64,000 nt of DNA from contig CAYIHQ010000001.1 in NCBI GenBank assembly GCA_964362905.1, forward strand, positions 1,163 through 65,162, in the 5' to 3' direction. Positions 33,952 through 54,845 of this stretch are shown here, piece by piece. Position numbers and translations under genes: made by a program. The stretch comes from an uncultured Ignavibacteriaceae bacterium (GTDB lineage: Bacteria; Bacteroidota; Ignavibacteria; UBA10030). Positions within the stretch are counted from its first letter, which is position 1, and each line of letters starts with the position of its first letter. The notes under the pieces were generated by a model. It saw nothing but the letters and a program-made list of their open reading frames with translations. It had not been told where the DNA came from and did not search any database.

Positions 33952-34494
33952 TCAGAAGCCAAGGGCTCGTGCCCGATCGTAGCGAAGCACGGTCTCGATG
34001 AGAACCTTGTCCGAGCTGTTCATGTCGAGCTGCCCGTAGTTCACGCTGACGGGCCAGCAGCCGAGCAGGCTCCACGTACGTTGCAGCTCCCCGTCCGGCC
34101 CAAAGAGCACCAGATCCGCGACCTTCTTGTAGTTCTTCGCCAGCCCGATCTTGTGGGTCTCCGGGTTGTACACCTGCTCGTGCCAATCCTTGATCGCACT
34201 CGCCACCCCCACATCCACCATGTCCTTCACAACGAGGGGAATGGTATCATAGATCGCACGTCCCGCAACCCAACGGGTTGTGTTGAGGAAGTTGAGCGGG
34301 ATCTCTTCCACGGCCACCGAGGGGAGAGCTGCGGCCTCCAGAGCAAGCCGAATGTTGTTCTCTCCCGCGACACCCGCGATCGAGATAAGCCAGTTGGACT
34401 GACGCTGGGGCTCGAACTTCGATGCCGCACCCCCGGGAGCCAGGTGGTCGCCGATGACCCCCAGCGGAAAGCCTTGAGTAGAAATACCGGGCAT
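33952..34494 (-). CDS. tail tube protein (T4 gp19-fold)
   Basis: 180 aa, immediately downstream of the sheath gene. The sequence style is that of contractile tail tube proteins. Confidence 0.7.
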   Translation of the reverse strand: MPGISTQGFPLGVIGDHLAPGGAASKFEPQRQSNWLISIAGVAGENNIRLALEAAALPSVAVEEIPLNFLNTTRWVAGRAIYDTIPLVVKDMVDVGVASAIKDWHEQVYNPETHKIGLAKNYKKVADLVLFGPDGELQRTWSLLGCWPVSVNYGQLDMNSSDKVLIETVLRYDRARALGF

Positions 34495-34500
34495 GATGGA

Positions 34501-36135
34501 TTAGCCTTGCACGAACTCGTTGAACTGCGCCCCAGTCGAAAGCAGCGTGAAATCCACGGTGATGACCTCCGCCGCCTTCGTCGGCTTCATCAGGATGATC
34601 CCACGCATCTGATTCTGGTCGATCAGAGTCGGTGTATTGGTCGTCGCATCGCAGATCACCTTGAACTCGTACAACCCACGAGCGTCCTTGATGGTCTGAA
34701 GCACGGGGTTCACCAGGTTGACAAAGCGACGCCAGGTGAACTCGTCGTTGGGCTCAAAGACCAGGACACGGATGCTCGTGGAGATGATCTTCTTGGCGTA
34801 GTTCAGCATCCTACGCACGTTGACACGGTTCAGCGCCGTAGACAGACGTTGCGTAGTCTTCTGGCCCCAGACCGTGATCCCATCACCAGGGAAGTTGACA
34901 ATGGGGTTGACAACCTGGCCCGGCCCGTAGAGCGATTCGCGCTCGCCCAGGGTCGTGTTGTACCAGACCGACAACGCGCTGGAGGGACGGCCCCGGGTGA
35001 AGCCCGCGGGCGCCCACCAGGTATCGGTCGTCCGGTCGTTGTAGGCGTAGACCCCGGCACAGATGCCGCTCGGGGGCACCCAGACCGACTTCTGGTTGTA
35101 GTTGTCGTAGACCTCCACCCACGGCCAGTAGTAAGCAGAGTAGGAGCTGTTCAACGAGTTGCCCGAGAAGCTACCCGTGGCGTTGGCGAAGTCCTTCGCA
35201 GTGGTGGGGGTCTGGACCGAGAATGGGGGGTCCACCAGGGCAATGCAGTCCCCACGAGCTGCGGCTAGGGTGGTGAGCTGGGTTTCCACCGTACGGGTAG
35301 TGTCGTTGATCTCGGTGGCCACGCCCGGGGCCATCAAGATATTGACATCCACGGTATCCGCATTGGAGAACAGATTGAGTCCGGAGGTGGCACTCGCGTA
35401 GTAGTCAGCCGCGGTGGTGGGCACCCCGTCGTTCCCCGTCGTTGCGCCACTCCCGGTCCCGCTGGCATACGTCCCATCCAGTGGTCTCCCGGTATTGAAA
35501 GTCGTTACAGTGAAGTACGCACTCACCCCGTTCATACGGAGCGAAATCTCGTTCGCGGGATCTCCGGGATTAGTAGGTGGTGTAGGGAGCTGATTCGGAG
35601 GCGCCAAGAGGTTGTCGAAGACCTCCCTCGCTACCCCCTTCTCGTAGACCGTCAGCTTGAAGTAGTTGGCGTTGGTACCACTCTGACCCCCCGCCTCGAT
35701 CTTGACCGTGACATTGGCATAGGTTGCGCTCTGCCATGTCCCAGCGGATGTGGCTGTCAGCGTGATGGTGGGAGTCGCGGGCGCCGACGTGATAACCGTC
35801 GTGGTGGTGGTGCCCGTCCCCACCTTCACCACCCTCACCACGTACAGTTGGTTCCCCTGGCGGAGATACTGGATCGCCGAGGGTACCAGCCCCTTCGCGT
35901 AGTAGACCGTCTTTGCGGGCTGCCCAAAAGTCCCCGCCACCGTGGTCGAAGTTGGTACGGGGGGTGGCCCAAAGGTCTCGATCAACTGCCTCTCGTTGGT
36001 GACGAGTGTCAGGGTCTCCGCCGGCCCCTTGACCGCCCATCCCACCACCCCGCAGATTGCCGTGGAGATTCTTTCTGCGTAGTCAGAGAAGTCAAACTCG
36101 TTGACTACAACGCCGGGGGAAACCTGGGAAGCCAT
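34501..36135 (-). CDS. contractile tail sheath protein
   Basis: N-terminal SPGVVVNEFDFS is a sheath signature. The protein is 544 aa and the tube gene follows. A GAGGA lies upstream of the ATG. Confidence 0.85.
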   Translation of the reverse strand: MASQVSPGVVVNEFDFSDYAERISTAICGVVGWAVKGPAETLTLVTNERQLIETFGPPPVPTSTTVAGTFGQPAKTVYYAKGLVPSAIQYLRQGNQLYVVRVVKVGTGTTTTTVITSAPATPTITLTATSAGTWQSATYANVTVKIEAGGQSGTNANYFKLTVYEKGVAREVFDNLLAPPNQLPTPPTNPGDPANEISLRMNGVSAYFTVTTFNTGRPLDGTYASGTGSGATTGNDGVPTTAADYYASATSGLNLFSNADTVDVNILMAPGVATEINDTTRTVETQLTTLAAARGDCIALVDPPFSVQTPTTAKDFANATGSFSGNSLNSSYSAYYWPWVEVYDNYNQKSVWVPPSGICAGVYAYNDRTTDTWWAPAGFTRGRPSSALSVWYNTTLGERESLYGPGQVVNPIVNFPGDGITVWGQKTTQRLSTALNRVNVRRMLNYAKKIISTSIRVLVFEPNDEFTWRRFVNLVNPVLQTIKDARGLYEFKVICDATTNTPTLIDQNQMRGIILMKPTKAAEVITVDFTLLSTGAQFNEFVQG

Positions 36136-37188: not shown

Positions 37189-37355
37189 CGAGTTTGGATC
37201 TGCTTGCTCCGATTCCGATTCCCCGTGAGCCGGAGTCGCCGGACCAGCTTACGCTTCTGCGGAGAGTAAGTCGAAGGACGCTGCCCCAGCGCCGGAGTCA
37301 CCCCCAGGCCAATCCCGAGCGTAGTGGTCATCTCCCGCAACACAAGAAACTTCAT
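37185..37355 (-). CDS. small basic protein (56 aa), absent from the ORF track
   Basis: Manual translation gives MKFLVLREMTTTLGIGLGVTPALGQRPSTYSPQKRKLVRRLRLTGNRNRSKQIQTR. It has ATGA overlaps with both neighbours (37352-37355 and 37185-37188). The head and the KRKLVRRLRL segment recall the MRFLVLEAV...RKLRLKKL family. Confidence 0.45.
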   Translation of the reverse strand: MKFLVLREMTTTLGIGLGVTPALGQRPSTYSPQKRKLVRRLRLTGNRNRSKQIQTR

Positions 37356-37819
37356 CGGTCGAAATCGAAGGGCTCGAAGATCCCAAAGAGGTCGGATAGA
37401 GTTGTGGGGAAGAACTGGCTCTCACCCACGAGCTGCATGACGTGCAACACATTCAATAGAACGAAACCAGCACGACGGATCGTCAAGTGCGGATGGTCAA
37501 AGCTCTCGTTCTTGCAGGGAATGTAAGCCGAGACAAAAACACGCCCAGTTTTACTAGGCTCATGGGGAGAGATCACAATGGTACGCCCGTGACCATCCGG
37601 ATGCAGCAGCAGGCTAGCCAATACCTGCTCCGCCCTCTTCAGGGTATCCATGGCTTTATCCCGATCCGGGCATCGCCGAGGATCCGGTAGCTCCATACCA
37701 GCGAGCTGGAAAGTGCTGTGATTGAATAGTCGAAAACCAAGGTCTACGACACCAGAAAAGGTACGTCCATCGCTCACCGACTCAACGTGCATCTTGTAGT
37801 TGTAGATGATGCGATTCAT
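37352..37819 (-). CDS. OB-fold, staphylococcal-nuclease-like protein (catalytic status unclear)
   Basis: VESVSDGRTFSGVVDLGFRLFNHSTFQLAGMELPDPR resembles the SNase-like pattern V.DGDT....dLG....vRL.GIDAPE. Confidence 0.4.
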   Translation of the reverse strand: MNRIIYNYKMHVESVSDGRTFSGVVDLGFRLFNHSTFQLAGMELPDPRRCPDRDKAMDTLKRAEQVLASLLLHPDGHGRTIVISPHEPSKTGRVFVSAYIPCKNESFDHPHLTIRRAGFVLLNVLHVMQLVGESQFFPTTLSDLFGIFEPFDFDR

Positions 37820-37835: not shown

Positions 37836-38420
37836 TCATTTCATCTTGATTACTCGGCCCTGCTCTGGCTTCTTCACAAGGGCAAGCAGCTTCAAGTATG
37901 TTCTGTTACCAATCTGGCTCGACATGCGGTGGATGAAATGCGGAATGCTCGCCTTCCATTTCCAGTACGCCGGCCCCCAGTGAGGACGTGCTGGAATCTT
38001 CCGCGTGCCAAACTCATGGATACGTCCAAGATCGTTGTAGTTCATCTTGGCCGTCCGATGATCCAGATTGGGCACCCCTACATAGATGCGCACACGGGTT
38101 TTTCCCTTGTAGATCCGCTGCACACCAATGGATCCCACATAATCCTCAGTAGCCTTCAGCATCTCCGGGCTCAAGCCAACTGCCAACTTGTGCGCCAGGT
38201 AGTCTGGATTCAGTGGCGGCCAGTTACTGGGCTGCGCCTGGATCTCCGAGATCACAGCATCTGCTAGACGCTCCGCGTCCTCCCGAAGAAGCCTGTTCAT
38301 CACCTCCGTCGGAACACTTTCAAGCACCTTACGGAATCGTTTCATATCCGTGATCCCGTAGCGACGTGCTGATGCCTCCAGGCGTCCACGGAAAGCACGC
38401 TGTACATCGAAGCCAATCAT
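37836..38420 (-). CDS. HK97 gp10-like head-tail/neck protein
   Basis: IHEFGTRKIPARPHWGPA matches the HK97-gp10-like motif (EfGT....arPfl.pA). Confidence 0.65.
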   Translation of the reverse strand: MIGFDVQRAFRGRLEASARRYGITDMKRFRKVLESVPTEVMNRLLREDAERLADAVISEIQAQPSNWPPLNPDYLAHKLAVGLSPEMLKATEDYVGSIGVQRIYKGKTRVRIYVGVPNLDHRTAKMNYNDLGRIHEFGTRKIPARPHWGPAYWKWKASIPHFIHRMSSQIGNRTYLKLLALVKKPEQGRVIKMK

Positions 38421-38882: not shown

Positions 38883-39908
38883 TCACCCCAAGACGGGGGG
38901 TACACTGGGGGACATGCTCCTCGCCTCCTCCACCAGCGACGCCTGCTCCTGAGCCCCCTCCTGAAGCAAGCTCTCGCTATCGAGCTGTAGGGGACCACCT
39001 GGAGCGGGCACCTTCCCGGAGTACTTCCCACGGATACGCCCAAGGATCTGCTTCGCCAGGGCAAGACAGTAGCGGCGGAACCATCGGAAGTGATCCAAGC
39101 GAATGCCGTCGATTCCCACGTTGTCGAAATAGCGATACATCACGTAGTAGTTTCCGCTGGCTCCAGCGATGTTGGTGCCACCCACATTGATGTACAGCGT
39201 TTTACTGGAAGCATCCCAAACCCATTCCGGTTCCTGGCTGGTCACACGATTCAACGTCTCCCAGAAGCTGATCCCCAGGACATACTGATCGAAGTCAAGC
39301 TGCTGCCCCCTCGGGTACTCCCTACCAAAGAGAGGGTCACTGATGAGCGGCGTACCCTCCTGGCGGACAAAGGAGAGAGTCGTTGGCCCCCGGCTGGGGA
39401 GGCTGGGCAGTGGGTACGCCGTCGTGCTGACGGCCAGCGTGAGGGTGCCGTATTTCTCGACCGGAAGCCATGTGTTGTAGACCGCAAGCGCCTCCTCCAC
39501 GATCGTCCGATAGTGCTCGCTTGTCAGCTCCACCGCAACCGCAGGGAAGCCGAGCATGGTCCGCACGTAGTCACGAAGCTCAGTGGAGTTGAGAATAGCA
39601 TCGTAGGGATAGGGCAGAACCTCGATGAACGGATAAGGTGAGGTGAAGCTACCACCCAGCTTAGCGTACCATTTCGCTGTGACATCTCCCTTGATGTAAG
39701 CAATCAGATCGACGGTGGTGGTGTAGAGCACCCCCGCAGCATCCGTGGTCTTGAGAATCGAGTTGGTCGCCTCCGCGCCAATAACTCTCCGCTCCTTATA
39801 GACCGTAGCTCCTTCTTCGTAGATTTCTACGTAGAGATCCGCGTCAACGGTTTGGCCCGTGGTTCCCGTGGTTACAAATCGGGCATCAAACGTGAGCGGA
39901 CGAGCCAT
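38883..39908 (-). CDS. neck / head-completion structural protein (341 aa; function tentative)
   Basis: It sits between the giant fibre-like gene and the adaptor genes. No specific motif recognised. Confidence 0.5.
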   Translation of the reverse strand: MARPLTFDARFVTTGTTGQTVDADLYVEIYEEGATVYKERRVIGAEATNSILKTTDAAGVLYTTTVDLIAYIKGDVTAKWYAKLGGSFTSPYPFIEVLPYPYDAILNSTELRDYVRTMLGFPAVAVELTSEHYRTIVEEALAVYNTWLPVEKYGTLTLAVSTTAYPLPSLPSRGPTTLSFVRQEGTPLISDPLFGREYPRGQQLDFDQYVLGISFWETLNRVTSQEPEWVWDASSKTLYINVGGTNIAGASGNYYVMYRYFDNVGIDGIRLDHFRWFRRYCLALAKQILGRIRGKYSGKVPAPGGPLQLDSESLLQEGAQEQASLVEEARSMSPSVPPVLG

Positions 39909-39914
39909 GCTGCC

Positions 39915-41390
39915 TTATCCTTGGACGGGCTTCCCAGTGATGGTGATGGGGCTGCTGGGCGTCAGCAGCAAGCTACCTACGATGAGGTACCCGGCACCAA
40001 TGAGAGCGACCTGCTTGGTGGTGGCGAGGGTACCCCGTGTTGTCAACGAGTTAGTCCGCGCGACCGCCAGTGCGGATGCGGTGGGGAGCTGGGTAAGAAC
40101 GTCGAGCAGCGAGTAGATGAAACCCTTCGACACGAGGGGTGCAGTGAGCTGCACCCCCACCACGTAGCCCACCGAGGTGAGAGACTGCTGGGCGATGACC
40201 GCGAGCTGGCCCCGCGAGACCAAGAAGCTGGAGGCTGCGCCCTGCACGTAGGCGGCGCAGACGAGGTAACGGTAGCCCACCGCATCCAGGAGGTGTCCCT
40301 TGGAGGCCAAGAAGAGCACATTCCCACTGATCTGGATATCGCCCTTCGAGGTGAGTAGCTGCTGAAAACCTAGAGTCTGTAGATATCCCTTCGAGGTGAG
40401 TAGCTGCTGAAGATTCGATGTCTGGAACGCGCCCTTGGAAGAGAGCTGTAGCTGCACACCAAGAACTTGCAACGCCCCCTTGGAAGAGAGCGGCACCAGC
40501 ACGCCCAGCACCCCCAGGTAACCCCGGGAAGAGAGCGACAGCGAGGTGCCAGTGGCCAGCGTGCCCCGGGAGACAACCAAGAGCTGTGTGCCCAGCACCT
40601 GGAGATAGCCAACGGAGGCTACCTGCGTGTACGCGGCCCCCCAGGCAATCAGCTCACCCTTTGACAGCAGCAAGAGCTGGGTGCCCAGCACCTGGAGATA
40701 CCCCTTCGAGGTGAGCACGCTCTGCCCTGCCAACACCACATGGCCCTTGCTAGCCAGCAGTGACGACGTGTTGACTACCTGGAGGTACCCGCGTGTAAAC
40801 AGATCGTGCGACTGCGCGACCGCGAGATAGCCCCGTGAAGGAAGAAACAGCAGGATACCGGACGAAGAAAGTAGATCCCCCTTCGAGGTGAGGACCACCT
40901 GGAGATTGACGACTCCAAAGGCACCCTTTGACAGCAGCAAGAGCTGTACGGTGGGAGCCTGAAGGTAGCCGCTGCTTACCAGCGGAAGCTGCGTGTTCGA
41001 GGTGAGGAACGACCCCTTCGACACGAGTGGCAGCTCGGCCGTAGTAGCCAGGGTGCCCTTCGATAGCAGACTGTGGCTGAGGCCGTTGATCGACAGATAG
41101 CCACTACACGAGACCTGCCCTTGCTGAGGGGTGGCCAGCGTGCCCCGGGAAGTGAGGGACAACCCGGGCTCCAGGCTCGGCAACGACAGGGTACCCCGGC
41201 ATATCAAGGGATTCTGGTAGCCGAGGATCACGAGGTAGCCACGGGACGAGGTGGACGCCTGCAACCCCACCGCATTGACGAGATAGCCCGCACCTACCAG
41301 ATTAGGGGCGGTCATCCCGCTAGCCAGTGACCCACGAGATGTCAGCTTGTTGTCCATCACCGTGGTCAGCGTGCCCCGGGATGTAAGAGC
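39915..41390. repeat. tandem 45-nt (15-codon) repeat array encoding the S-K/R-G shaft of the giant protein
   Basis: Near-identical DNA copies occur, for example cccttcgaggtgagtagctgctgaa at 40343 and 40388, and gcccttggaagagag at 40431 and 40476. Protein units include LLTSKGYLQTLGFQQ, LLTSKGDIQISGNVL and QLSSKGAFQTSNLQQ. Confidence 0.8.
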
Positions 41391-44300
41391 CAGCTCCTCC
41401 GTTTCGCTGAGCGCTTCCTCAGCCTGGAGCACGGGTGTAACCGGGGTGGCCACCTTGTAGGTCGCTGGCCGATCCACGCGCGACAGCCTCACCTCTGCCA
41501 GCTTGATGTTGGCAAATGAGGTGAAGAATGTGCTAGGTGTGTAGAATGCTCCGTGGACGAAGCTGGTAACCTGGGATACAACTGCCAGGCTGCCGGAGAC
41601 GGCTTGGCCTGTACCCGCCACACCCCCTACATAGGGGGTAAGCGTGGTGCTAGAGTAGTCGAGCTTGATGTGTACCCAACGATCCGTGGGGTACTGCGTT
41701 GTGGAGGTGGTATGCGTGCTGATGATTTGCACGCCACCTGCTGGTGGTGAGGAGAAGGTGACAGACCAGGCACCCGTGAGATAGTCCAGGGTTCCAGAGG
41801 TGATCCCCGTGCCACTGATCGTACCCGCACCGTAGTCATAGCCTGCTACGGAGCTGCCAGCCACATAGATGTAGAAGCTGCTGGCTATAACAGGGGCTAC
41901 CAAAGTCCCAGAGAATACAGTCTGAGAGCCGTTGCCCGTAGCGAGCACAGTGCGCGTCCCCTGAGGGATAGCCACCTCGACTACGGAATATGAAGTCCCC
42001 TGACCCACAGTGAACCGACCGCGCAGAGCACGATCCGTTGACGCAGTGTTGAGGTAGACGAGAATAGGAGCCACCGTGTCATCCGCTAGAGACAGCAGAG
42101 ACCACAGCTCAGAGACTCCAGAGTCTCGATCGAGCGTCCGGATGAGCACCCAGAAATCCAAGCAGAAGCTACCCTGCCACGCATAGACAGAGAAGTTGGC
42201 CGAAACGAACGACGCTTGGAACAGAGATTTCTGGAAGTGCGAAGCCCCGCCGAAAATCCCCTTGATGTGGCTTGGGGAGAATCCAGCAATCGTAGCCAGT
42301 GCCTGAGAGTTGGGACCGGCATCGTTTCCGATCGAGCCCTCGCTGTTCCACAGCGCTACCGTGTTGGCATCAGAGGCGTAGGGGCCGTCAATCGAGTCCG
42401 TATTGGACCACGCTGTGGACGAGGCAGCTCCGGGATTGCTGTAGTACACATAGTACGCCTGAGTGACAGACAATCCAACATCTTCATTTTGCTGGATCGT
42501 CTGCGTCGGAACGAAGTATAGAAAATAGTCTCCAGAAGCTGGATCACGCCGGAGAGTGCTGGGCACCAGCGTGAACAGGTTGGTGTCCGTCTGGTGGACT
42601 ACGCGCAGATCCCCCAGACCGAGCTGGCTAAACGTGGGGATCCCATAGGTCGTCACGTTCACACCCAGGACATCCCTGCCCCCGGTGTACAGGGAGTGGG
42701 TGCCCGAGGTGGACACTCGGCGACGCCGACGCCAAGTGGTGTCCCACCAGCCAGTGACCTGCCCCAGCCCACCATCCGCGTGTGGGAAGTCCCCTGTGAT
42801 GGGACCAAGGAACTGCTCCTCATACTCGAACTTGCTACCCTTCGTATTGGCGTTCACACCGCTGAACCGGCCATTTACGTGGCTAAACGCCATCAGGTTG
42901 TAAAGCCAGTTATTCAGCAGCTTTATAGCAAGTGCCCTTTTTTGAGTATTCGTGTGGTAGCGTGCAGCGTAATACGCCACGAGCGATAGAGCAGCGTTTA
43001 TTCCGTCTGGTAGTCCATCGGGATAATTACCAACTCCTTCGTGATAGAAAGTTTCGGCATCTGTTGGCGCCCTCTGGCACGGGTACCTCGGGGGCTGTCC
43101 TGGAGGGTTCGTGCAGCTCGGTACGGTGAGAACCGGAGGGACAGTCCCTGGATGGGGGATGCCACCATCGAAAGTGGTGATGTCCTGACCATGTGCTCGA
43201 AAGGTGCCAGCGACGGGCCACCCAATGGTATCGACGTGTGGGCTGGGAGAGTCCTTCAAGCCCGGAGTTTGCTTGCTGGTAACCCAGTCCTGAACAGCCG
43301 TATCTGAGCCTAGCCGATTGTAGTAGGTAGCTATCGGCGTATCGCTATCCGTCAATGCCGGGTAGTACGGCGGTGTGGTAGACAGATAGGGTGACGATAT
43401 CGGGATTACCCAAGAATAGCCCTGACCATAGTTATCGTTACAGAAGCGAACGGGGAACCCGTGGCTACCACCCCTTAGTGGATCCTGGAACAGAAGGCCA
43501 AACCGACCGAGAGTCTGTGAGACGAATCCCGGGGATAGTCGGCCTGGATACGGACCAAGCCCGTAGAGTAAGCAGTAGTCAAGCACGTAGCTGCTGCCCC
43601 CCAACCCAAGACGCAGGAGGGTGGCAGGCAATGTGAGACCGTTGGAAAGCAGCTTGGTCTCGTAGCGAAACTCTCGATAGCACGCCCAGATGTAGGGCAG
43701 GATGTAGCCGAGCTGCCAGGTAGAGCTGTAGGTGAAATACCCCTCACCAAAACGCATCTGCACCTCGGAGATGGGAAGCGAGGGATTACCCAGCGCGGTG
43801 CCACCCCCATACAGTGGATTGGTGCTCCCAACATTCTCCGGATTGCCCCAATCCAGACCCCTTCCTTCATCTATCGGAAAGTCCTTGATCTTCTCTTTCC
43901 CGGAGACCGCGATCAGCCCCGCAGGGTCCATCAAGCCGAGGGGTGAGGTGGACAAACGCCAGACATTTCGACTCTCGATGAACTCCTTATAGCGATCCGG
44001 CGCGCTCCCGTAGGCAGCAGAGGTCAGGAACTCGAATCCGCTGCGCCCAGCCAACGCCTTGGTCACGAGATAGGCCGTCAGAACGTTCTTCAACGACCAG
44101 GCATTAGCCCGAGATTCGTCGCGGAATTGCTGCTGGTTGGTGCCCGTCGGATCAAAGGGGCTCTTATCCTTGTAAGCCCCCAGAAAGAACTCGCCCATGA
44201 GACGAACCTTGTCCCACAGAAGCCAGCTCCCTGTGGTCTCCCACACCTCAAAGGCAGCATCCTGGCTACAGTGAGAAGCGTTCTCCGCGGACATCCCATG

Positions 44301-47225
44301 CTGTAGATTCTCCTCAAGGAACGCAATGCGAGTCAGCGCATAGCTTCTTGTATCGTTCTTCGGGAGCACGGAGACCCCGGGCTCTGGATCGTTGCAGATC
44401 GCATACGACACCTCGGAGCCCGGGGCTGTGGTGGTACCCTGATAGGGACTGCTCAGAGTACCTTTCCAGAAACCGGCCGCAAAGTCGTACCACGTAGCCG
44501 TCAGGATGTAGGTTCGATCGTGCCCGTCCACCACAAGACGCCGATAGCCCGCGTACACGGTAGAACCCGCATAGGTCGAGAACCCGTTAGCATTCTGAGA
44601 GTAGTAGGCTATGTCATTCGCGGAGAGAGACGATCCCGCGCTATTGGTAAACGTTACCGTAGTGCTGTTGTTGGTGACTCCGATTTTGTCACGTCCGAAG
44701 CAGCGTCTGAACGTACGATTCAGTGGCTCCTGGTTGGTGATGAAATACTGTCCCCCCGTCGTTGAGAACGGCACGAGTCCGTTATCTCCGGGTGCCGTCT
44801 GATACTTATAGAAAGGACGACGGCTCCAGGTGTGCGCGTTCTCGAAGTTCCACAGCACCTGACCTACTCGCGTATACCCGTGGAGCCCCGCATGATAGAA
44901 ATAGCGTACGGCTTGCCATGCCTGGCTGTAGTAGATCAACAAGCAATGAGCGTGTCCGTTTCTCGGGGCTCCCGCTGTGTTGGCCGTGGGTACACCCTGC
45001 TCATGCCATCCATGGCAGGCGCGGCTACCCACAGACGTGGTGGTGGTGCCGCCCCCTTGGAAATTGCCACTACTCCAGGCAGTGACCGCGGAGATCGCAG
45101 TTGCCTGATTCAGAGTGTGGATCGTCCCCTTGTCTCTGGCAATCGCCTCCGTCGTGTAGCTCCGCGTGTAGACATTACCGGGCGCTACGAGCTGTGTGGG
45201 GGTCAGGAACTTCAGTGCCCCCTCGAAGAGCCCCAGAGCCCGGGTAGCATTGTAGGTCTCCCGCTTGGCAATCGGAGTGATCGGATGCAGCTTGCGCGCA
45301 GCAAAGGTGTCATTCTCTGCCGCTGAGGCCCCCGCCCCAAAGTAAAGAAAAAAGATTCTTGGGACGCTCGATCCGTCCGTCAGGTGCTCCTGCACGTAGT
45401 CCGACTGGAAGCCCCCTGCCGGGATCGCCCCGCCGATCGTGTCCCTCGGACATCCGCAGATCGTGTAGCCACGCTTATCTCCCCCGAAGACAAACGTACT
45501 CGCCCGATAGCCCGAAATCGCCTCCATGTGAGAATCCGTCACATGGTCGGTATCGAAAACCAGTCCCCACCGATTGAACGGCATTGGACCCAGCGGGTGG
45601 TAGTTCGGATTCTGTGAGAACGACGTAGCTAGATCATTCTTGATGTAGGACGCCTGGATTTTCGTGCCATTCGTAGGTGCGGTGCGGAACGTGAGATCCA
45701 CGGCACCCGTGGTGTAATTCACTGTCCCATCGAGAATCAGTGTGGCCCCGGTTACATCATACGAGTAGGTTCCCAGCACCTGTATCCCAGAGCCGGGCGC
45801 GGTGGAGAAGGTGATGGAGTAGGCACCCGTGGTGTAATTGATTGTGCCCGCCGAGATCCCAACACCAGAGATCGTCCCCAAGCCGTTGTCGCGCCCGAAG
45901 ACCGTAGTACCCGTTCCCACCTTCACGAGGAGCGCACCCTTGATGAGCGGCTTACCCACCGCGGTCCCGGTGAACACCGTCTGCGAGGCTGTGCCCGTGC
46001 CCCACAGCTCATTGACTACATTCGTGTGGTAGAAGGGCACCACCTGGCCAAGGCCATTGTCCTTGCCCTCCACCGTACCCGCCTGTACGTGCAGAGAGTG
46101 AGCATTAGGACGGCTCGGAAGAATCGCCCCGGTAAACGAGGTACCTCCAGCACCTACGTAGAGCTGCCAATAGGCATAGCGATAGGAGGACAGCACGGGA
46201 ACCAGATTCAGTGGGGCTACAGCAAACTCCACCGAGATGGCACCAGTGGCGTAGTTCACATAGCTGTTCGCCCCCTTCACAATCCCTGGCCCTGTGATCT
46301 CCCCGACACCACCACTCAGGGTCTGTCCGTCCTGCCCGGAGACACTGGCTCCCGCAGAGACCCGCAGATACCCCTTGGGAAACGCACCATGGCCCGCGAA
46401 AGCATATGGTAGCGTCCCGGTGAAGATCCGAGTGACACCATTCCCTGTCCCCAGAGAATAGCTAGCATTGGTGTGCAGCTCCGCGTCCCTTCCCTGATAA
46501 TCATTCCCCAGACGCACCTCCAGATCCACACAACGAGAGTTGTGCGGAATATACAGGTACCACGTCAGCGAGAAGAGATCACGATTGAGCGAGGTTGCAG
46601 ATGTCTGGATGTCCCTATGATAGCTGCGCCTCCGGATGACCTTCATCCACTTCGTGTTCTCCAGAGTAGTATCCTCGTACCACTCTGTAGAGTTCGTGGC
46701 GTCCACCCGATAGAGATTTCCGGAGCGCGAGAGCGCAGCATCTACATAGACATCAAAGACTTCGCTCTGGAACGTACCGGAGATAAGCCCCGAGGTTACA
46801 GAGGCATGCTGCGCATAGGTTGGCAGGTTGTTCTTGAGAGTGATGCTCTTGATGAGCTTCAGGTACTGAACACCCCGCACGTTGGTCGCCGCATTGCGCT
46901 TCGGGATGTCTACCCCTGTACCATCCGTTTTCCCACACCATCCCTTGGCAACACGCACCTGACCATTCGGCCACGTCGTCAGCAGCGTCCACGCCGTAGG
47001 CAAGTCCACATCGGCGGGTACCGTCGCCGACTGAAGCAGACGAAAATGGTAGTCCGCTAGCTCGCTCTCGTAGATCCCATTGTTCCCCGAAGGAAACGGA
47101 CATGTCACACCCACGACCTCCTTCCGGTCGTAGTCCGTGTCATTCTCCAAGATGAACTGGAGATCCAGAGCCTCTGGCCCCCCGGCATCACCCATGCCAC
47201 CCGGTCCCGGGGGAACGACAGCCAT
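39915..47225 (-). CDS. giant multidomain fibre-like virion protein (2436 aa)
   Basis: A single uninterrupted ORF. Its parts are an N-terminal globular region, at least 4 copies of a GT..FTGT...DNG.G.I.G..I..GTINY.TGA.S.TF module (aa ~257-527, and again at ~1800-1870), a possible LamG/concanavalin-like segment, and about 30 C-terminal 15-residue S-K/R-G repeats. Confidence 0.85.
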   Translation of the reverse strand: MAVVPPGPGGMGDAGGPEALDLQFILENDTDYDRKEVVGVTCPFPSGNNGIYESELADYHFRLLQSATVPADVDLPTAWTLLTTWPNGQVRVAKGWCGKTDGTGVDIPKRNAATNVRGVQYLKLIKSITLKNNLPTYAQHASVTSGLISGTFQSEVFDVYVDAALSRSGNLYRVDATNSTEWYEDTTLENTKWMKVIRRRSYHRDIQTSATSLNRDLFSLTWYLYIPHNSRCVDLEVRLGNDYQGRDAELHTNASYSLGTGNGVTRIFTGTLPYAFAGHGAFPKGYLRVSAGASVSGQDGQTLSGGVGEITGPGIVKGANSYVNYATGAISVEFAVAPLNLVPVLSSYRYAYWQLYVGAGGTSFTGAILPSRPNAHSLHVQAGTVEGKDNGLGQVVPFYHTNVVNELWGTGTASQTVFTGTAVGKPLIKGALLVKVGTGTTVFGRDNGLGTISGVGISAGTINYTTGAYSITFSTAPGSGIQVLGTYSYDVTGATLILDGTVNYTTGAVDLTFRTAPTNGTKIQASYIKNDLATSFSQNPNYHPLGPMPFNRWGLVFDTDHVTDSHMEAISGYRASTFVFGGDKRGYTICGCPRDTIGGAIPAGGFQSDYVQEHLTDGSSVPRIFFLYFGAGASAAENDTFAARKLHPITPIAKRETYNATRALGLFEGALKFLTPTQLVAPGNVYTRSYTTEAIARDKGTIHTLNQATAISAVTAWSSGNFQGGGTTTTSVGSRACHGWHEQGVPTANTAGAPRNGHAHCLLIYYSQAWQAVRYFYHAGLHGYTRVGQVLWNFENAHTWSRRPFYKYQTAPGDNGLVPFSTTGGQYFITNQEPLNRTFRRCFGRDKIGVTNNSTTVTFTNSAGSSLSANDIAYYSQNANGFSTYAGSTVYAGYRRLVVDGHDRTYILTATWYDFAAGFWKGTLSSPYQGTTTAPGSEVSYAICNDPEPGVSVLPKNDTRSYALTRIAFLEENLQHGMSAENASHCSQDAAFEVWETTGSWLLWDKVRLMGEFFLGAYKDKSPFDPTGTNQQQFRDESRANAWSLKNVLTAYLVTKALAGRSGFEFLTSAAYGSAPDRYKEFIESRNVWRLSTSPLGLMDPAGLIAVSGKEKIKDFPIDEGRGLDWGNPENVGSTNPLYGGGTALGNPSLPISEVQMRFGEGYFTYSSTWQLGYILPYIWACYREFRYETKLLSNGLTLPATLLRLGLGGSSYVLDYCLLYGLGPYPGRLSPGFVSQTLGRFGLLFQDPLRGGSHGFPVRFCNDNYGQGYSWVIPISSPYLSTTPPYYPALTDSDTPIATYYNRLGSDTAVQDWVTSKQTPGLKDSPSPHVDTIGWPVAGTFRAHGQDITTFDGGIPHPGTVPPVLTVPSCTNPPGQPPRYPCQRAPTDAETFYHEGVGNYPDGLPDGINAALSLVAYYAARYHTNTQKRALAIKLLNNWLYNLMAFSHVNGRFSGVNANTKGSKFEYEEQFLGPITGDFPHADGGLGQVTGWWDTTWRRRRRVSTSGTHSLYTGGRDVLGVNVTTYGIPTFSQLGLGDLRVVHQTDTNLFTLVPSTLRRDPASGDYFLYFVPTQTIQQNEDVGLSVTQAYYVYYSNPGAASSTAWSNTDSIDGPYASDANTVALWNSEGSIGNDAGPNSQALATIAGFSPSHIKGIFGGASHFQKSLFQASFVSANFSVYAWQGSFCLDFWVLIRTLDRDSGVSELWSLLSLADDTVAPILVYLNTASTDRALRGRFTVGQGTSYSVVEVAIPQGTRTVLATGNGSQTVFSGTLVAPVIASSFYIYVAGSSVAGYDYGAGTISGTGITSGTLDYLTGAWSVTFSSPPAGGVQIISTHTTSTTQYPTDRWVHIKLDYSSTTLTPYVGGVAGTGQAVSGSLAVVSQVTSFVHGAFYTPSTFFTSFANIKLAEVRLSRVDRPATYKVATPVTPVLQAEEALSETEELALTSRGTLTTVMDNKLTSRGSLASGMTAPNLVGAGYLVNAVGLQASTSSRGYLVILGYQNPLICRGTLSLPSLEPGLSLTSRGTLATPQQGQVSCSGYLSINGLSHSLLSKGTLATTAELPLVSKGSFLTSNTQLPLVSSGYLQAPTVQLLLLSKGAFGVVNLQVVLTSKGDLLSSSGILLFLPSRGYLAVAQSHDLFTRGYLQVVNTSSLLASKGHVVLAGQSVLTSKGYLQVLGTQLLLLSKGELIAWGAAYTQVASVGYLQVLGTQLLVVSRGTLATGTSLSLSSRGYLGVLGVLVPLSSKGALQVLGVQLQLSSKGAFQTSNLQQLLTSKGYLQTLGFQQLLTSKGDIQISGNVLFLASKGHLLDAVGYRYLVCAAYVQGAASSFLVSRGQLAVIAQQSLTSVGYVVGVQLTAPLVSKGFIYSLLDVLTQLPTASALAVARTNSLTTRGTLATTKQVALIGAGYLIVGSLLLTPSSPITITGKPVQG

Positions 47226-51833: not shown

Positions 51834-53231
51834 TCACGGATTCAGCAGAACGCCCCGGCAGTAGAAGTTCGCATTGACCGGCTTCTTCCCGTACTGCGTT
51901 CCGATCCCCTTCCGGCCGATGAAATCGTCCAGGATGATGGTCGGCGTCATGTACAACGGGATGTAGGGCGCGTAGACGTAGCCCGTGTCGAGGAAGCTGT
52001 TGCCCTTGTAGCCCATCACCCATGTGGTCGTGGCAAGGAACGGATCCTTGTAGACCGTCCAGCGGTTGTTCAGCGTCCCGATCTTCAGGACACCGCTGTT
52101 GGCCTGCGTGCCCAACGCACCCGGGATCGGCACAAACGTGGGCAGGGACTCGATCACGTCGCAGACGGCGATGCCGGCCACAATGAAGTTGGTCTGCACA
52201 CGCTTGGTCTTGCTCATCACCAAGTTGCTGCCCGAGATCATCGCATCCACGATGGACAGCTTGTGCTCCGTGTAGCTCACACCCGCCGGAACCGCCTTGT
52301 CCCAGGTCACTGAGCCCGCACCAGCAAAGGAGTCCAGATCGTTGATGATCTCGCGGTCCAGCTCCTGCTTGATGACCTCGGCCATGATCCCCACCATCTC
52401 GGCCTCCGCGTCCAGACCATGCAGCGCGTTGAGGTTCTGCGCCGCTTCCAGACTCCAGCGAGCACGCAGCTTGCGGACCAACGCCTGGATGGGCGCGCTT
52501 GTGAGCTGGAGATCAAGCTGCGGAACGTTGTCGGATGCCTCCGAGTCGTACCGATAGGTGACCGTGGCGGCCGTGATGTTGTTGACGAAATCGAGGGAGA
52601 TCACCCCCGTCGCGTAGTTGATGGTGGCGACACTGAGGGTCTCCGTGCCAACGGTCAGCACGAACCCGCCATTGCCATCATCCGTCACCGTGAAGGCCCC
52701 ACCCGCGCTGGTCCCCGAGATGGTCACCGTGCCGGGACGCACAGGGATGTAGGCGCAGGTGTGCGCGACGTTGTTGGAGCTGATCGTGCCAGTCTCCTTG
52801 TTGACCGCATCACCGCTGTAGGTCTCATTCCCGGTCCCACCCGTGCGGGCATCAAAGGCCGCACCGCCCGAAGCGATGGTACCCTTTGTGGTCCCGTAGA
52901 GGTAGTCCAGATAGAAGATCAGCGAGATCGGACCAGCCATGGGCTGGACCGAGACGATCTCGTTGGCGATCAGATTCGGGTAGACCGCCCGAATCAGCGG
53001 AAAAGCGAACTTGTCCCAATTGCCCACCTGGAGCACCTTGGTGACCTCGTTCATCTCGCTGGTCTGAAAGCGATGCTGATTCTCCAGCAGGATGGCAGTG
53101 TGCTTGCGCGGCCAGCCAGAGAGATCATCACAGTAGGGTGCCCAACGCGGGCTGGAGGCAAGGGCCTCGCCAATCGTCTCCATCTGGTCCACGCCGGACC
53201 CACGGAGATTCGGAAGCATTACGGAAGACAT
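51834..53231 (-). CDS. major capsid protein, T4 gp23 family, with an inserted repeat-type domain
   Basis: FPLIRAVYPNLIANEIVSVQPMAGPISLIFYLDYLYG, VRKLRARWSLEAAQNLNALHGLDAEAEMV..EVIKQELDREIINDL and PTIILDDFIGRKGIGTQYGKKPVNANFY match gp23 hallmarks. Confidence 0.9.
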   Translation of the reverse strand: MSSVMLPNLRGSGVDQMETIGEALASSPRWAPYCDDLSGWPRKHTAILLENQHRFQTSEMNEVTKVLQVGNWDKFAFPLIRAVYPNLIANEIVSVQPMAGPISLIFYLDYLYGTTKGTIASGGAAFDARTGGTGNETYSGDAVNKETGTISSNNVAHTCAYIPVRPGTVTISGTSAGGAFTVTDDGNGGFVLTVGTETLSVATINYATGVISLDFVNNITAATVTYRYDSEASDNVPQLDLQLTSAPIQALVRKLRARWSLEAAQNLNALHGLDAEAEMVGIMAEVIKQELDREIINDLDSFAGAGSVTWDKAVPAGVSYTEHKLSIVDAMISGSNLVMSKTKRVQTNFIVAGIAVCDVIESLPTFVPIPGALGTQANSGVLKIGTLNNRWTVYKDPFLATTTWVMGYKGNSFLDTGYVYAPYIPLYMTPTIILDDFIGRKGIGTQYGKKPVNANFYCRGVLLNP

Positions 53232-53258: not shown

Positions 53259-54845
53259 TCAGATCCAGCCAGGCCGCGCCCCAATCGCAGCCCGTGCCGC
53301 ACGGACACCAGGGTCCGTGGATTCCACCACCGTTGACAACACCTCGGAGTCTGCACCCTCGTTGATCGCGTCCCCGCGCTTGGGCAGCTCCGAGCGGTCC
53401 CCGTGGTCCCCAGGCTCGTCGTCCACAGCGGCCGACAGATTCACCTGCCTGGTCAGCGCCTCATGCTTGTCCTGCGTAGGCAAGCCCAGCGCCTTCTTGT
53501 ACTCCTCAATCCGCTCCCCCAGCTCAGCTTCACTCGCGCAGGAGAGGAGGGACTTGGAAAACCGAGCCAGGTCCGGGGTGGCTTCAATGGCCTCCCGCAC
53601 CGATCGAGTCAGGCGCGCGCGGTCCTGGCGCTCGGTGATCGCCGAGACCAAACGCACTGCGGCTCCATACCGCTCTTCCAGAGCATGATGCGCCTGGGAA
53701 AGATCATCCAGGGCACCTTCACTCTTCCGCAGCCTGGTCAACAGCTCGTTACCCAGGCCCTTGGCCGCGACGTATCGACGCCGCAGCTCGTCCTCGTCGG
53801 ATTCGAGGACTTCCAACGCCTCGGCCAGACGCTCCCGATAGTGGTCCCGCGCTTCTCGGGTCTCCCGCAGAAGCGTCTTGAACCGCTCAATAGCAGCGTC
53901 ATGCCGAGAAGATTCTGTAGCCGGGGCGCCGGCTCCCTTCTTCTCCTCCTCCTTCTCATCCCCCGGAGTGGCGTCCTCCAGCGCGTTGTCCACACGCCGA
54001 TCCAGGTCCGCATCGTTCTGCACATGGTGCGCATCCAGGGCAGTCACCAGGGCAGTCCGAGCCTCCAGGATTCGAGAAGTAGTACCGGCCACCTGCTCCT
54101 GCAAGGCCCCACGCTCTTCCTCCGAGAGCAACCCCACAAGCGTGTCCGCGCTGGACTCGGCTTCGACACAGCTCTGGAATCGCTTGCGCAGATCGTCCGC
54201 CCCTAGCTGGTCCACACCCTTGGCAAGATCCAGGGCAGCGACTTCGAGGCGCTTCAACTCGTCTTGCTTCTCTTTCATCGTAGAGTTCCTACCGTAAGGC
54301 CCTTTCAGCACCCCTTCCTGGAGCTTTGGATAAGCGTCTGGAGTCGAGGGCTTGTACACAAAGTCAAACGTGTCGAGCTGGTAGCTAGTCTCATCAACGT
54401 ATTCAACGCCACCCCTTGTCTGTGACGTGCCTCGACCACGCGAGGATATGCCCACTTCACAACCGGCCCGAAAAAGCTCCTGGATTATCTGTCCAGAAGG
54501 AGTGTTGAGTACCTCAGCTTCGCCAATGATATCGTTGCCCTCTCGATCAAGGCGGGTCACAACGTGACTAACACGATTGAGATTGGTGACGCCCCGCTCA
54601 GGGTGCTCCACCTCTCCCATCATGCGCTTCCGTTGCAACATGTCCGTCGTCCGATTGTCGGAGAGAACACGCTCCCAAAGCGATGCGCTGTAGATTCGTC
54701 CGTTAGCGTTCTTGGTGTCCGCGCGCTGAAAAATACCACGAACACGCATCCTGCCCGTGGGCCTCCCGTCTTCTACAACATTGTCCTCAAGAATCTTGTA
54801 GTGGACAAAGCCCACAAAATCCTTGATCTCTTGTAGCGGGGACAT
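53259..54845 (-). CDS. prohead core protease (T4 gp21 / peptidase U9-like) fused to a long coiled-coil scaffold-like C-terminal region
   Basis: VRGIFQRADTKNANGRIYSASLWERVL, MMGEVEHP, GISSRGRGT and FDFVYKPSTPDAYP align with T4 gp21 (IEGIFMQAEVVNRNKRLYP, ALGELNHP, GVSSRGLGS, VDAVWGPSAPDAWV). The last ~330 aa are Glu/Ala/Arg/Leu-rich. Confidence 0.8.
   Translation of the reverse strand: MSPLQEIKDFVGFVHYKILEDNVVEDGRPTGRMRVRGIFQRADTKNANGRIYSASLWERVLSDNRTTDMLQRKRMMGEVEHPERGVTNLNRVSHVVTRLDREGNDIIGEAEVLNTPSGQIIQELFRAGCEVGISSRGRGTSQTRGGVEYVDETSYQLDTFDFVYKPSTPDAYPKLQEGVLKGPYGRNSTMKEKQDELKRLEVAALDLAKGVDQLGADDLRKRFQSCVEAESSADTLVGLLSEEERGALQEQVAGTTSRILEARTALVTALDAHHVQNDADLDRRVDNALEDATPGDEKEEEKKGAGAPATESSRHDAAIERFKTLLRETREARDHYRERLAEALEVLESDEDELRRRYVAAKGLGNELLTRLRKSEGALDDLSQAHHALEERYGAAVRLVSAITERQDRARLTRSVREAIEATPDLARFSKSLLSCASEAELGERIEEYKKALGLPTQDKHEALTRQVNLSAAVDDEPGDHGDRSELPKRGDAINEGADSEVLSTVVESTDPGVRAARAAIGARPGWI

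Follow-up and report, generated by a model that had tools for sequence, protein, structure and literature searches.

The β-structured fibres of viruses are few in kind (triple β-spiral, triple β-helix and β-prism), and each new kind has helped to explain how viruses attach to their hosts and has served protein engineers as a scaffold. As a rule phage fibres are trimers, and in those that have been characterised the conserved N-terminus usually binds the virion and the variable end is distal. In bacteriophage T4 the position immediately upstream of gp13 is held by wac, the gene of fibritin, the collar and whisker protein, which is a 487-aa α-helical coiled coil with a C-terminal foldon. Here we describe a 64,000-nucleotide (nt) stretch of DNA (hereafter the window; positions 1163-65162 of contig C1, CAYIHQ010000001.1) that carries, on the minus strand, a giant open reading frame (ORF) for 2,436 aa (39915..47225). 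Its product, P0001, taken from the ORF list and its translation, is a probable virion (neck-associated) fibre-like protein that ends in a long array of repeats with a period of about 15 residues. A repeated β rod on a phage appendage is in itself an already known kind of thing; the interest of this array is that a rare clade of T4-like phages from groundwater conserves its length but not its sequence, and that its motif recurs in other phage-like proteins at very different net charge. We interpret it as a rod-forming β repeat of no established class, carried by a fibre that is probably attached to the neck, and not as a canonical triple β-spiral, a reading to which we give a probability of roughly one half.

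The repeat array and its variation

Anchored on S-[KR]-G, residues 1945-2424 of P0001 (39954..41393, minus strand) resolve into 32 consecutive units of 14-17 aa with the core L-x-S-[KR]-G-x-L. Nineteen units have 15 residues, nine have 14, three have 16 and one has 17. A preliminary description of this DNA, made from the sequence alone, had reported a near-regular array over the last ~490 residues with a period of 14-16 and an invariant Gly preceded by S/T-K/R. The array is indeed there and the example units it quoted are all present in the translation; the modal length is 15, and the Gly is found in 30/32 units. Ser occupies its core position in 24/32 units (Ser or Thr in 26/32) and Lys or Arg in 24/32, Leu stands two residues ahead of the Ser in 26/32, and the position two residues past the Gly is hydrophobic in 31/32; a weaker second Gly follows six residues downstream of the first. 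The identity autocorrelation has its peaks at lags 15, 30 and 45, and the lag-15 value of 0.209 lies ~11 standard deviations above the maxima over lags 5-49 obtained from 2,000 shuffles (0.131 +/- 0.007, highest 0.163). A comparable period is absent from every other 485-aa stretch of the giant protein, and the array is the sole one of its kind in the 3.5-Mb assembly. In composition it is 20% Leu and 38% hydrophobic, with 28 Lys/Arg against 9 Asp/Glu (net charge +19). It stops 12 residues short of the C-terminus, with no globular knob after it; the tail (residues 2425-2436, PSSPITITGKPVQG; 39918..39953, minus strand) resembles the end of the 1,806-aa relative P0007 (TPVTPITITPVGRQG). The C-terminal placement of the putative shaft, which the preliminary description had called unusual, is so in comparison with adenovirus and reovirus fibres.

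Neither Pfam nor PHROG returned anything for the repeat, whether scanned with the whole protein, with its C-terminal 496 aa or with all family members. The repeat matches no curated family and has no relative in Pfam, PHROG or the PDB, and the protein family itself is rare and uncharacterised. Several familiar kinds of repeat were considered and rejected: a coiled coil, because a Gly occurs every 6-9 residues and no helices are predicted; a collagen-like or Gly-rich fibre, because the period is wrong; and a Ca-binding RTX-type roll, because the residue before the Gly is Lys/Arg here and is not conserved in the relatives.

Only about ten representatives of the family came out of exhaustive and word-indexed searches, which covered 1.8 and 5.8 billion proteins; they share with P0001 99% (P0002), 36% (P0004), 30-34% (P0011-P0016) and 29% (P0007) identity. 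When 1.84 billion representatives were scanned exhaustively by HMMER with the array, only 9 matched, and a profile search intended to enlarge the family gave no further full-length members. IMG/VR contributed one more distant member, and a metagenome scan yielded a short fragment besides an allele and a relative, P0011, that were both known already. Among 50,697 phage records, tblastn with the whole protein found only two short matches, both to the Ig-like modules described below, and the C-terminal region had no match even at E<=1. The best match outside the family (E=1.4e-12) is P0003, a Lys-rich, eukaryote-looking protein of 1,072 aa, whose residues ~800-1072 consist of near-perfect 15-residue repeats, SSADI[LP]ASGYL[DN]VV, with the A-S-G-Y-L core and the period in common.

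All family members have 1,806-2,659 aa. They align well over the first ~1,940 residues, where many W/R/D/H/Y residues are invariant, and every member carries a C-terminal array of period 14-15, even where its sequence is unalignable. The motif for the family as a whole is [LI]-x-[SAC]-x-[GA]-x-[VIL], and the residue ahead of the Gly is K/R in P0001; P0004 has E/R at this place, and P0007 has D. Between the end of the LamG domain and the C-terminus lie 499-537 aa in 8/10 members (379 aa in P0007, 638 aa in P0004), despite an array identity between members below 25%. Thus, the length of the array is conserved across the family and its sequence is not.

We compared two alleles of the giant gene, that of the window and that encoding P0002, which is found in L003 and in a 96-kb contig from Hainich (L011). 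As the ORF has the same length in these independent assemblies, it is not an assembly artefact. A collapse of repeats during assembly was likewise rejected, since the units are too divergent in DNA and three assemblies agree. The alleles are 99% identical overall, with 69 nucleotide differences, whose density is about fourfold higher in the array (24 nt/kb) than over the first 5,820 nt (5.7 nt/kb); 14 of the 18 amino-acid differences fall within the last 496 residues. In the array the differences are clustered, and two of the clusters show an allele that agrees with a paralogous unit: one window allele has the sequence of a unit 267 nt off (19/19), and part of one L003 allele matches the adjacent unit (34/44 over the tested segment). 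Such clustered, paralogue-matching differences are the signature of short gene-conversion tracts, and therefore recombination between units occurs, reshuffling the sequence of the array without altering the number of units in the two alleles.

The preliminary description had called several 45-nt units almost identical and had deduced from this an array that is recombinogenic and variable in length, with the advice to compare repeat number among related genomes. We find the unit pairs it singled out to be 76-78% identical and other units 60-74%; the longest exact internal repeat has 25 nt (40655/40922), and Tandem Repeats Finder reports only 2.4 copies with a 75% match. The recombinogenic character is supported, in the form of short conversion tracts between units. 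Variability in length is not supported: the two alleles have equal repeat numbers, and the length is conserved in 8/10 relatives.

A repeat of period 14-15, L-x-[SA]-x-[GA]-x-[VIL], is also found in the phage-like proteins P0005, P0006, P0008 and P0009 (E=3e-7 to 6e-4). The gene of P0005 adjoins fibre-sized and β-helix genes, that of P0006 lies two genes upstream of an SU10-type adaptor gene, and those of P0008 and P0009 sit among homing-endonuclease genes. A super-period of two units is seen in the arrays of P0004, P0008 and P0009. We tentatively extend the reading to these proteins: the repeat may be a fold, fibrous or solenoid, that has not been described before and that several unrelated phage lineages use in appendages beside the neck or adaptor, with a length of ~30-35 units that would act in a ruler-like manner and a ladder of charge on the turn residues (-104 to +44 per chain) that would tune electrostatic adhesion to the surfaces of different hosts.

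Across the P0004-P0009 set (P0004 at L006, P0005 at L004, P0006 at L008, P0007 at L007, P0008 at L009 and P0009 at L005) the net charge of the array ranges from -104 (P0005, over 529 aa) via -53 and -30 to +40-44. The spread is driven mainly by the residue before the Gly and by loop residues.

Predicted fold of the repeat

For the C-terminal 500 residues AlphaFold2 (AF2) predicts β structure only, and secondary structure assigned by DSSP in two independent runs comprises two short strands per unit. A monomer model of residues 1237-2436 based on the 10-sequence family alignment is uninformative for the repeats (predicted local distance difference test score, pLDDT, 30-54). A model of eight units based on A4, an alignment of 24 repeat blocks (24 rows), reaches a mean pLDDT of 72.3 and a predicted template modelling score (pTM) of 0.55, and in it each unit runs through a strand V-L-T-S, a turn K-G-x, a strand L-Q-V-L and a loop. 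Accordant with this pattern, we propose that the unit would consist of a short strand (L-x-S), a tight Lys/Arg-Gly turn, a second short strand (L-x-V-L) and a loop of 3-4 residues, with L, S, G, L and V alternating on one buried face and with an exposed turn of variable charge. About 32 such units would make up a folded, all-β rod, the C-terminal module of the giant virion protein.

The array could also be a monomeric narrow β-solenoid (β-roll) in which each unit forms a coil of 14-15 residues, or each pair of units a coil of ~30 residues; at 4.8 Å per coil this would make a rod of ~15 nm. We regard this as possible, though a good deal short of probable. Besides the confidence scores and the two strands per unit, large and small residues alternate (L, S, G, L) as would suit a tight core of two sheets, and the two-unit super-period of P0004, P0008 and P0009 counts in its favour. 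The ice-binding protein of Lolium perenne (3ULT) has coils of 14-15 residues. A Foldseek search of the eight-unit model against the PDB gave 42 weak matches, all of them β-solenoids, including LpxA/GlmU, CcmM, bactofilin, CsgA, FapC and the Lolium protein (3ult). However, the best of these has E=1.5 and none exceeds a template modelling (TM) score of 0.34, so that no PDB solenoid superposes. Uncharacterised phage proteins from BFVD do superpose (TM 0.62-0.78, root-mean-square deviation 2.9-5.8 Å; the best at TM 0.74-0.78 and ~3 Å), but they are AF2-type predictions themselves. Phage fibres, moreover, are usually trimers, a hydrophobic content of 38% exceeds what a 15-residue coil can bury, and ladders of like charge at a spacing of 4.8 Å would be extreme in the relatives (-104, -53, +44). 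AF2 is also known to hallucinate confident β-solenoids for repeat sequences (PMC11795689). Because of this bias, and because the model is of a monomer only, we treat the solenoid picture as a hypothesis. Within our reading of the array as an unclassified β rod we lean towards an oligomeric, probably trimeric form, since a monomeric coil of 15 residues would not be expected to be so hydrophobic.

A giant gene at the neck position of a T4-like module

All genes around the giant ORF share its strand, and together they make up a structural module of T4-like myovirus type. In transcription order (minus strand) they encode a prohead protease (53259-54845), a gp23-type capsid protein (51834-53231), the products of five small genes that lie between the capsid gene and the giant ORF, P0001 itself, a T4 gp13-like neck or head-tail adaptor protein (38883..39908; phrog_211), whose gene starts 6 nt past the stop of the giant ORF, a Neck1/tail-completion protein (37836-38420), the sheath (34501-36135), the tube (33952-34494), the baseplate hub and then the tape measure. 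Orthologues of the gene downstream of the giant ORF match PF26809 (Phage_T4_gp13) in L002, L003, L006 and L007, and the order protease, gp23, small genes, giant gene, gp13, gp15, sheath, tube is shared by the window and these four loci; in every locus recovered, the giant gene is immediately upstream of the Phage_T4_gp13 gene. The closest relatives of the capsid protein are from distant T4-type phages (<=39% identity), and near-identical contigs come from Hainich groundwater metagenomes. C1 (129.5 kb) is the longest contig of a 721-contig metagenome-assembled genome and has the look of a phage genome that was placed in one bin with a bacterial genome (GC 58.4% vs 56.7%). The first 55 nt of C1 are repeated exactly 547 nt ahead of its end, which may be an assembly overlap.

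Two further observations concern the neck genes of this module. At the P0007 locus (L007, 11421-13532) the gp13-like neck gene encodes 703 aa and matches Intein_splicing and HNH_3, so that it looks, from these matches, like a neck protein gene that contains an intein. Between the neck genes of the window, an ORF of 155 aa (37352-37819) has a weak PHROG endonuclease match (phrog_452, E=2e-4).

The remainder of P0001 (all coordinates on the minus strand) begins with a conserved N-terminal domain (residues 1-254; 46464..47225), which contains the densest run of invariant residues in the family alignment A1. We searched these 254 aa for stand-alone homologues, as a test of the idea that they form an anchor, and found none. 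They are followed by four tandem β modules of ~70 aa (residues ~255-535; 45621..46463; …GTGNG.T..F.GTL…NY.TGA.S..F..AP), which are missing from P0007 and match phrog_1014/6128 as well as the insertion domain of a Gp23 in the PDB (E=0.014); one further module of this kind is inserted near residues 1795-1870. The conserved central region (residues ~536-1685; 42201..45620) is partly helical and has many invariant W/R/D/H/Y. Pfam, PHROG and PDB searches gave no match to its ~1,100 residues, and the portion modelled by AF2 has low confidence.

Between the central region and the array lies a ConA-like/LamG jelly-roll with an inserted β (Ig-like) module (residues ~1686-1916; 41478..42200), modelled by AF2 with a pLDDT of 72-93. 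This ConA-like/Laminin-G β-sandwich is recognised by both profile and fold. PF13385 was detected in 4/10 family members (best E=3e-6), the PDB profile search returned the LamG domain of PAPP-A2, and Foldseek matched the domain with a probability of 1.0 to ConA-like lectin subdomains and to the LamG domain of PAPP-A at an identity of <=10%; as judged from the model, the likeness to ConA-like lectins is at the level of the fold only. A linker (residues 1925-1944, …ATPVTPVLQAEEALSETEE; 41394..41453), with two Glu (E1936 and E1937) that are nearly invariant in the family alignment, leads into the array.

An insertion in the gp23-type capsid protein (residues ~138-228) weakly resembles the ~70-aa β modules of the giant protein (encoded at 45621-46463 and ~41700-41950), with BLASTP E=0.03-0.16, common phrog_1014/6128 matches and a match to Gp23 in PDB entry 9ukm. 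The capsid surface and the giant protein may, to judge by these similarities, display the same module.

Because its gene sits where T4 encodes fibritin (wac), immediately upstream of gp13, we read P0001 as probably a neck- or collar-attached fibre in a T4-like groundwater myovirus lineage. The conserved N-terminal ~1,940 residues bear lectin-like (ConA/LamG) and Ig-like surface modules, and the fast-evolving C-terminal rod would probably be the exposed, surface-contacting end. Its length (~32 units) is held constant; what diversifies its surface is point changes together with short tracts of conversion from unit to unit. The gradient of conservation along the aligned sequences, highest at the N-terminus and lowest in the rod, suggests an N-terminal anchor and a distal C-terminal rod.

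The protein might also be oriented the other way, with the C-terminal rod and tail (…P-I-T-I-T…) as a proximal stalk on the neck, the N-terminal 1,940 residues as a distal head and the length of the rod as a spacer. In its favour are the length of the rod, which is conserved (499-537 aa in 8/10 members) although its sequence is not, the short C-terminal motif common to P0001 and P0007, and the presence in the N-terminal portion of lectin-like and Ig-like modules, such as are usually found in parts that are distal or exposed. That motif varies between subfamilies, however, the N-terminal 254 aa are the most conserved part of the protein and the rod the least, and characterised phage fibres usually anchor by a conserved N-terminus. 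We consider the reversed orientation possible, though a good deal short of probable.

Several points weigh against our interpretation of P0001 as a neck fibre with a distal rod. Searches of Pfam, PHROG, the PDB and phage records found no homology to fibritin or to any characterised fibre. The phage is uncultivated, so the presence of P0001 in the virion is something we infer; the adjacency of gp13 is circumstantial; and the polarity is read from the gradient of conservation. The faster change of the array could stem from relaxed constraint and not from host-driven selection. As regards the fold, the eight-unit AF2 monomer is of moderate confidence, and the alignment behind it includes the blocks of P0005-P0009, which are related only at the E=3e-7 to 6e-4 given above.

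Comparison with described fibres and solenoids

The preliminary description had likened the array to the fibre shafts of adenovirus and reovirus, and it could in principle be a homotrimeric triple β-spiral of the adenovirus fibre or reovirus sigma1 type, with a rise of ~13 Å per unit and a fibre of ~40 nm. The parts of this comparison that held are the period (modal 15, in accordance with the ~15-residue pseudo-repeat of such shafts) and the general logic of strand, tight Gly turn, strand and variable loop. In the published consensus, positions a-o, hydrophobic residues occupy c, e, g, k and m, and Gly or Pro occupies j of the g-h-i-j turn (PMC3150272). We scored all 15 registers against it on the 19 units of exactly 15 residues. 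With the Gly placed at j, the hydrophobic occupancy at c, e, g, k and m drops to 0.36, under the 0.47 found elsewhere; in the best hydrophobic registers (0.57-0.58) the frequency of Gly or Pro at j is 0.00. One register fits by its hydrophobic residues (0.58 vs 0.28 elsewhere), but it puts the Gly at i and Ser at g, and no single register satisfies the consensus.

Neither Adeno_shaft nor any other fibre repeat in Pfam matched at E<=10, and phmmer against the PDB found nothing. When the A4 profile was compared with 177,635 PDB sequences, the adenovirus fibre shaft 3izo_F (97-176) ranked second, in the shifted register just described and at a level that is not significant (E=0.99, 12.5 bits). 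In favour of a spiral, its large rise per unit would suit the extreme net charge of relatives (to -104/529 aa) better than stacking at 4.8 Å does. In contrast, no fibre shaft appears among the 42 weak Foldseek matches in the PDB, and the domain order of a spiral fibre (N-terminal anchor, shaft, C-terminal head) is not that of P0001, in which ~1,940 globular residues come first and the array, knobless, last. The preliminary description had itself named a different repeat fold and an invariant repeat number as findings that would speak against a spiral. By these criteria the reading is weakened; the tests do not support an adenovirus-type triple β-spiral, which we regard as unlikely, while the structural evidence, from a monomer model of moderate confidence, decides neither for nor against it. 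Weakest of all is the idea that P0001 is not an external fibre but a protein of the head interior, an ejected protein or a factor in assembly, with a flexible or extended repeat region: its gene does lie within the head-to-neck block among small basic proteins, and homology to known fibres was not found, but modules of the ConA-like and Ig-like kinds typically belong to virion proteins that are exposed, the repeat shows a conserved pattern of a buried face and is predicted to be β-structured, and the synteny fits the position of wac. We regard this idea as very improbable.

If the array of P0001 is a new rod fold on a neck appendage, it adds a building block to those of fibres and shows what occupies the position of fibritin in distant relatives of T4; if it is a divergent β-spiral, that fold extends to the neck proteins of tailed phages. 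Among described systems, T4 fibritin is the counterpart by gene position, immediately upstream of gp13 in a T4-like module, and P0001 is likewise predicted to be elongated. It differs in its size of 2,436 aa, its large globular domains and its all-β repeat, and no Pfam (Fibritin_C) match or sequence similarity connects the two. The shafts of adenovirus fibre and reovirus sigma1 share with the array the ~15-residue pseudo-repeat, the succession of strand, tight turn, strand and variable loop, the alternating hydrophobic residues and their occurrence in a fibrous viral protein; in P0001, however, the Gly is one position off j and Ser stands at g, there are 32 units instead of 7-22, the array is C-terminal, and neither sequence nor Foldseek comparison reveals a significant similarity. 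The narrow β-solenoids and β-rolls (3ULT, bactofilin, CsgA) resemble the AF2 model of P0001 in its two short strands per 15-residue unit and provide its only weak Foldseek matches in the PDB, a likeness that may reflect the bias of AF2 towards solenoids; they do not superpose globally, and the array is far more hydrophobic and charged than monomeric coils. Further structural counterparts are the BFVD models of proteins from Paracoccus phage Shpa (A0A0U2C121), a podovirus (Podoviridae DUF7666, A0A8S5MQ87) and Gordonia phage Trine (A0A2Z4Q9M1), uncharacterised predictions that were compared by structure only and that superpose on the eight-unit model at 15-18% identity.

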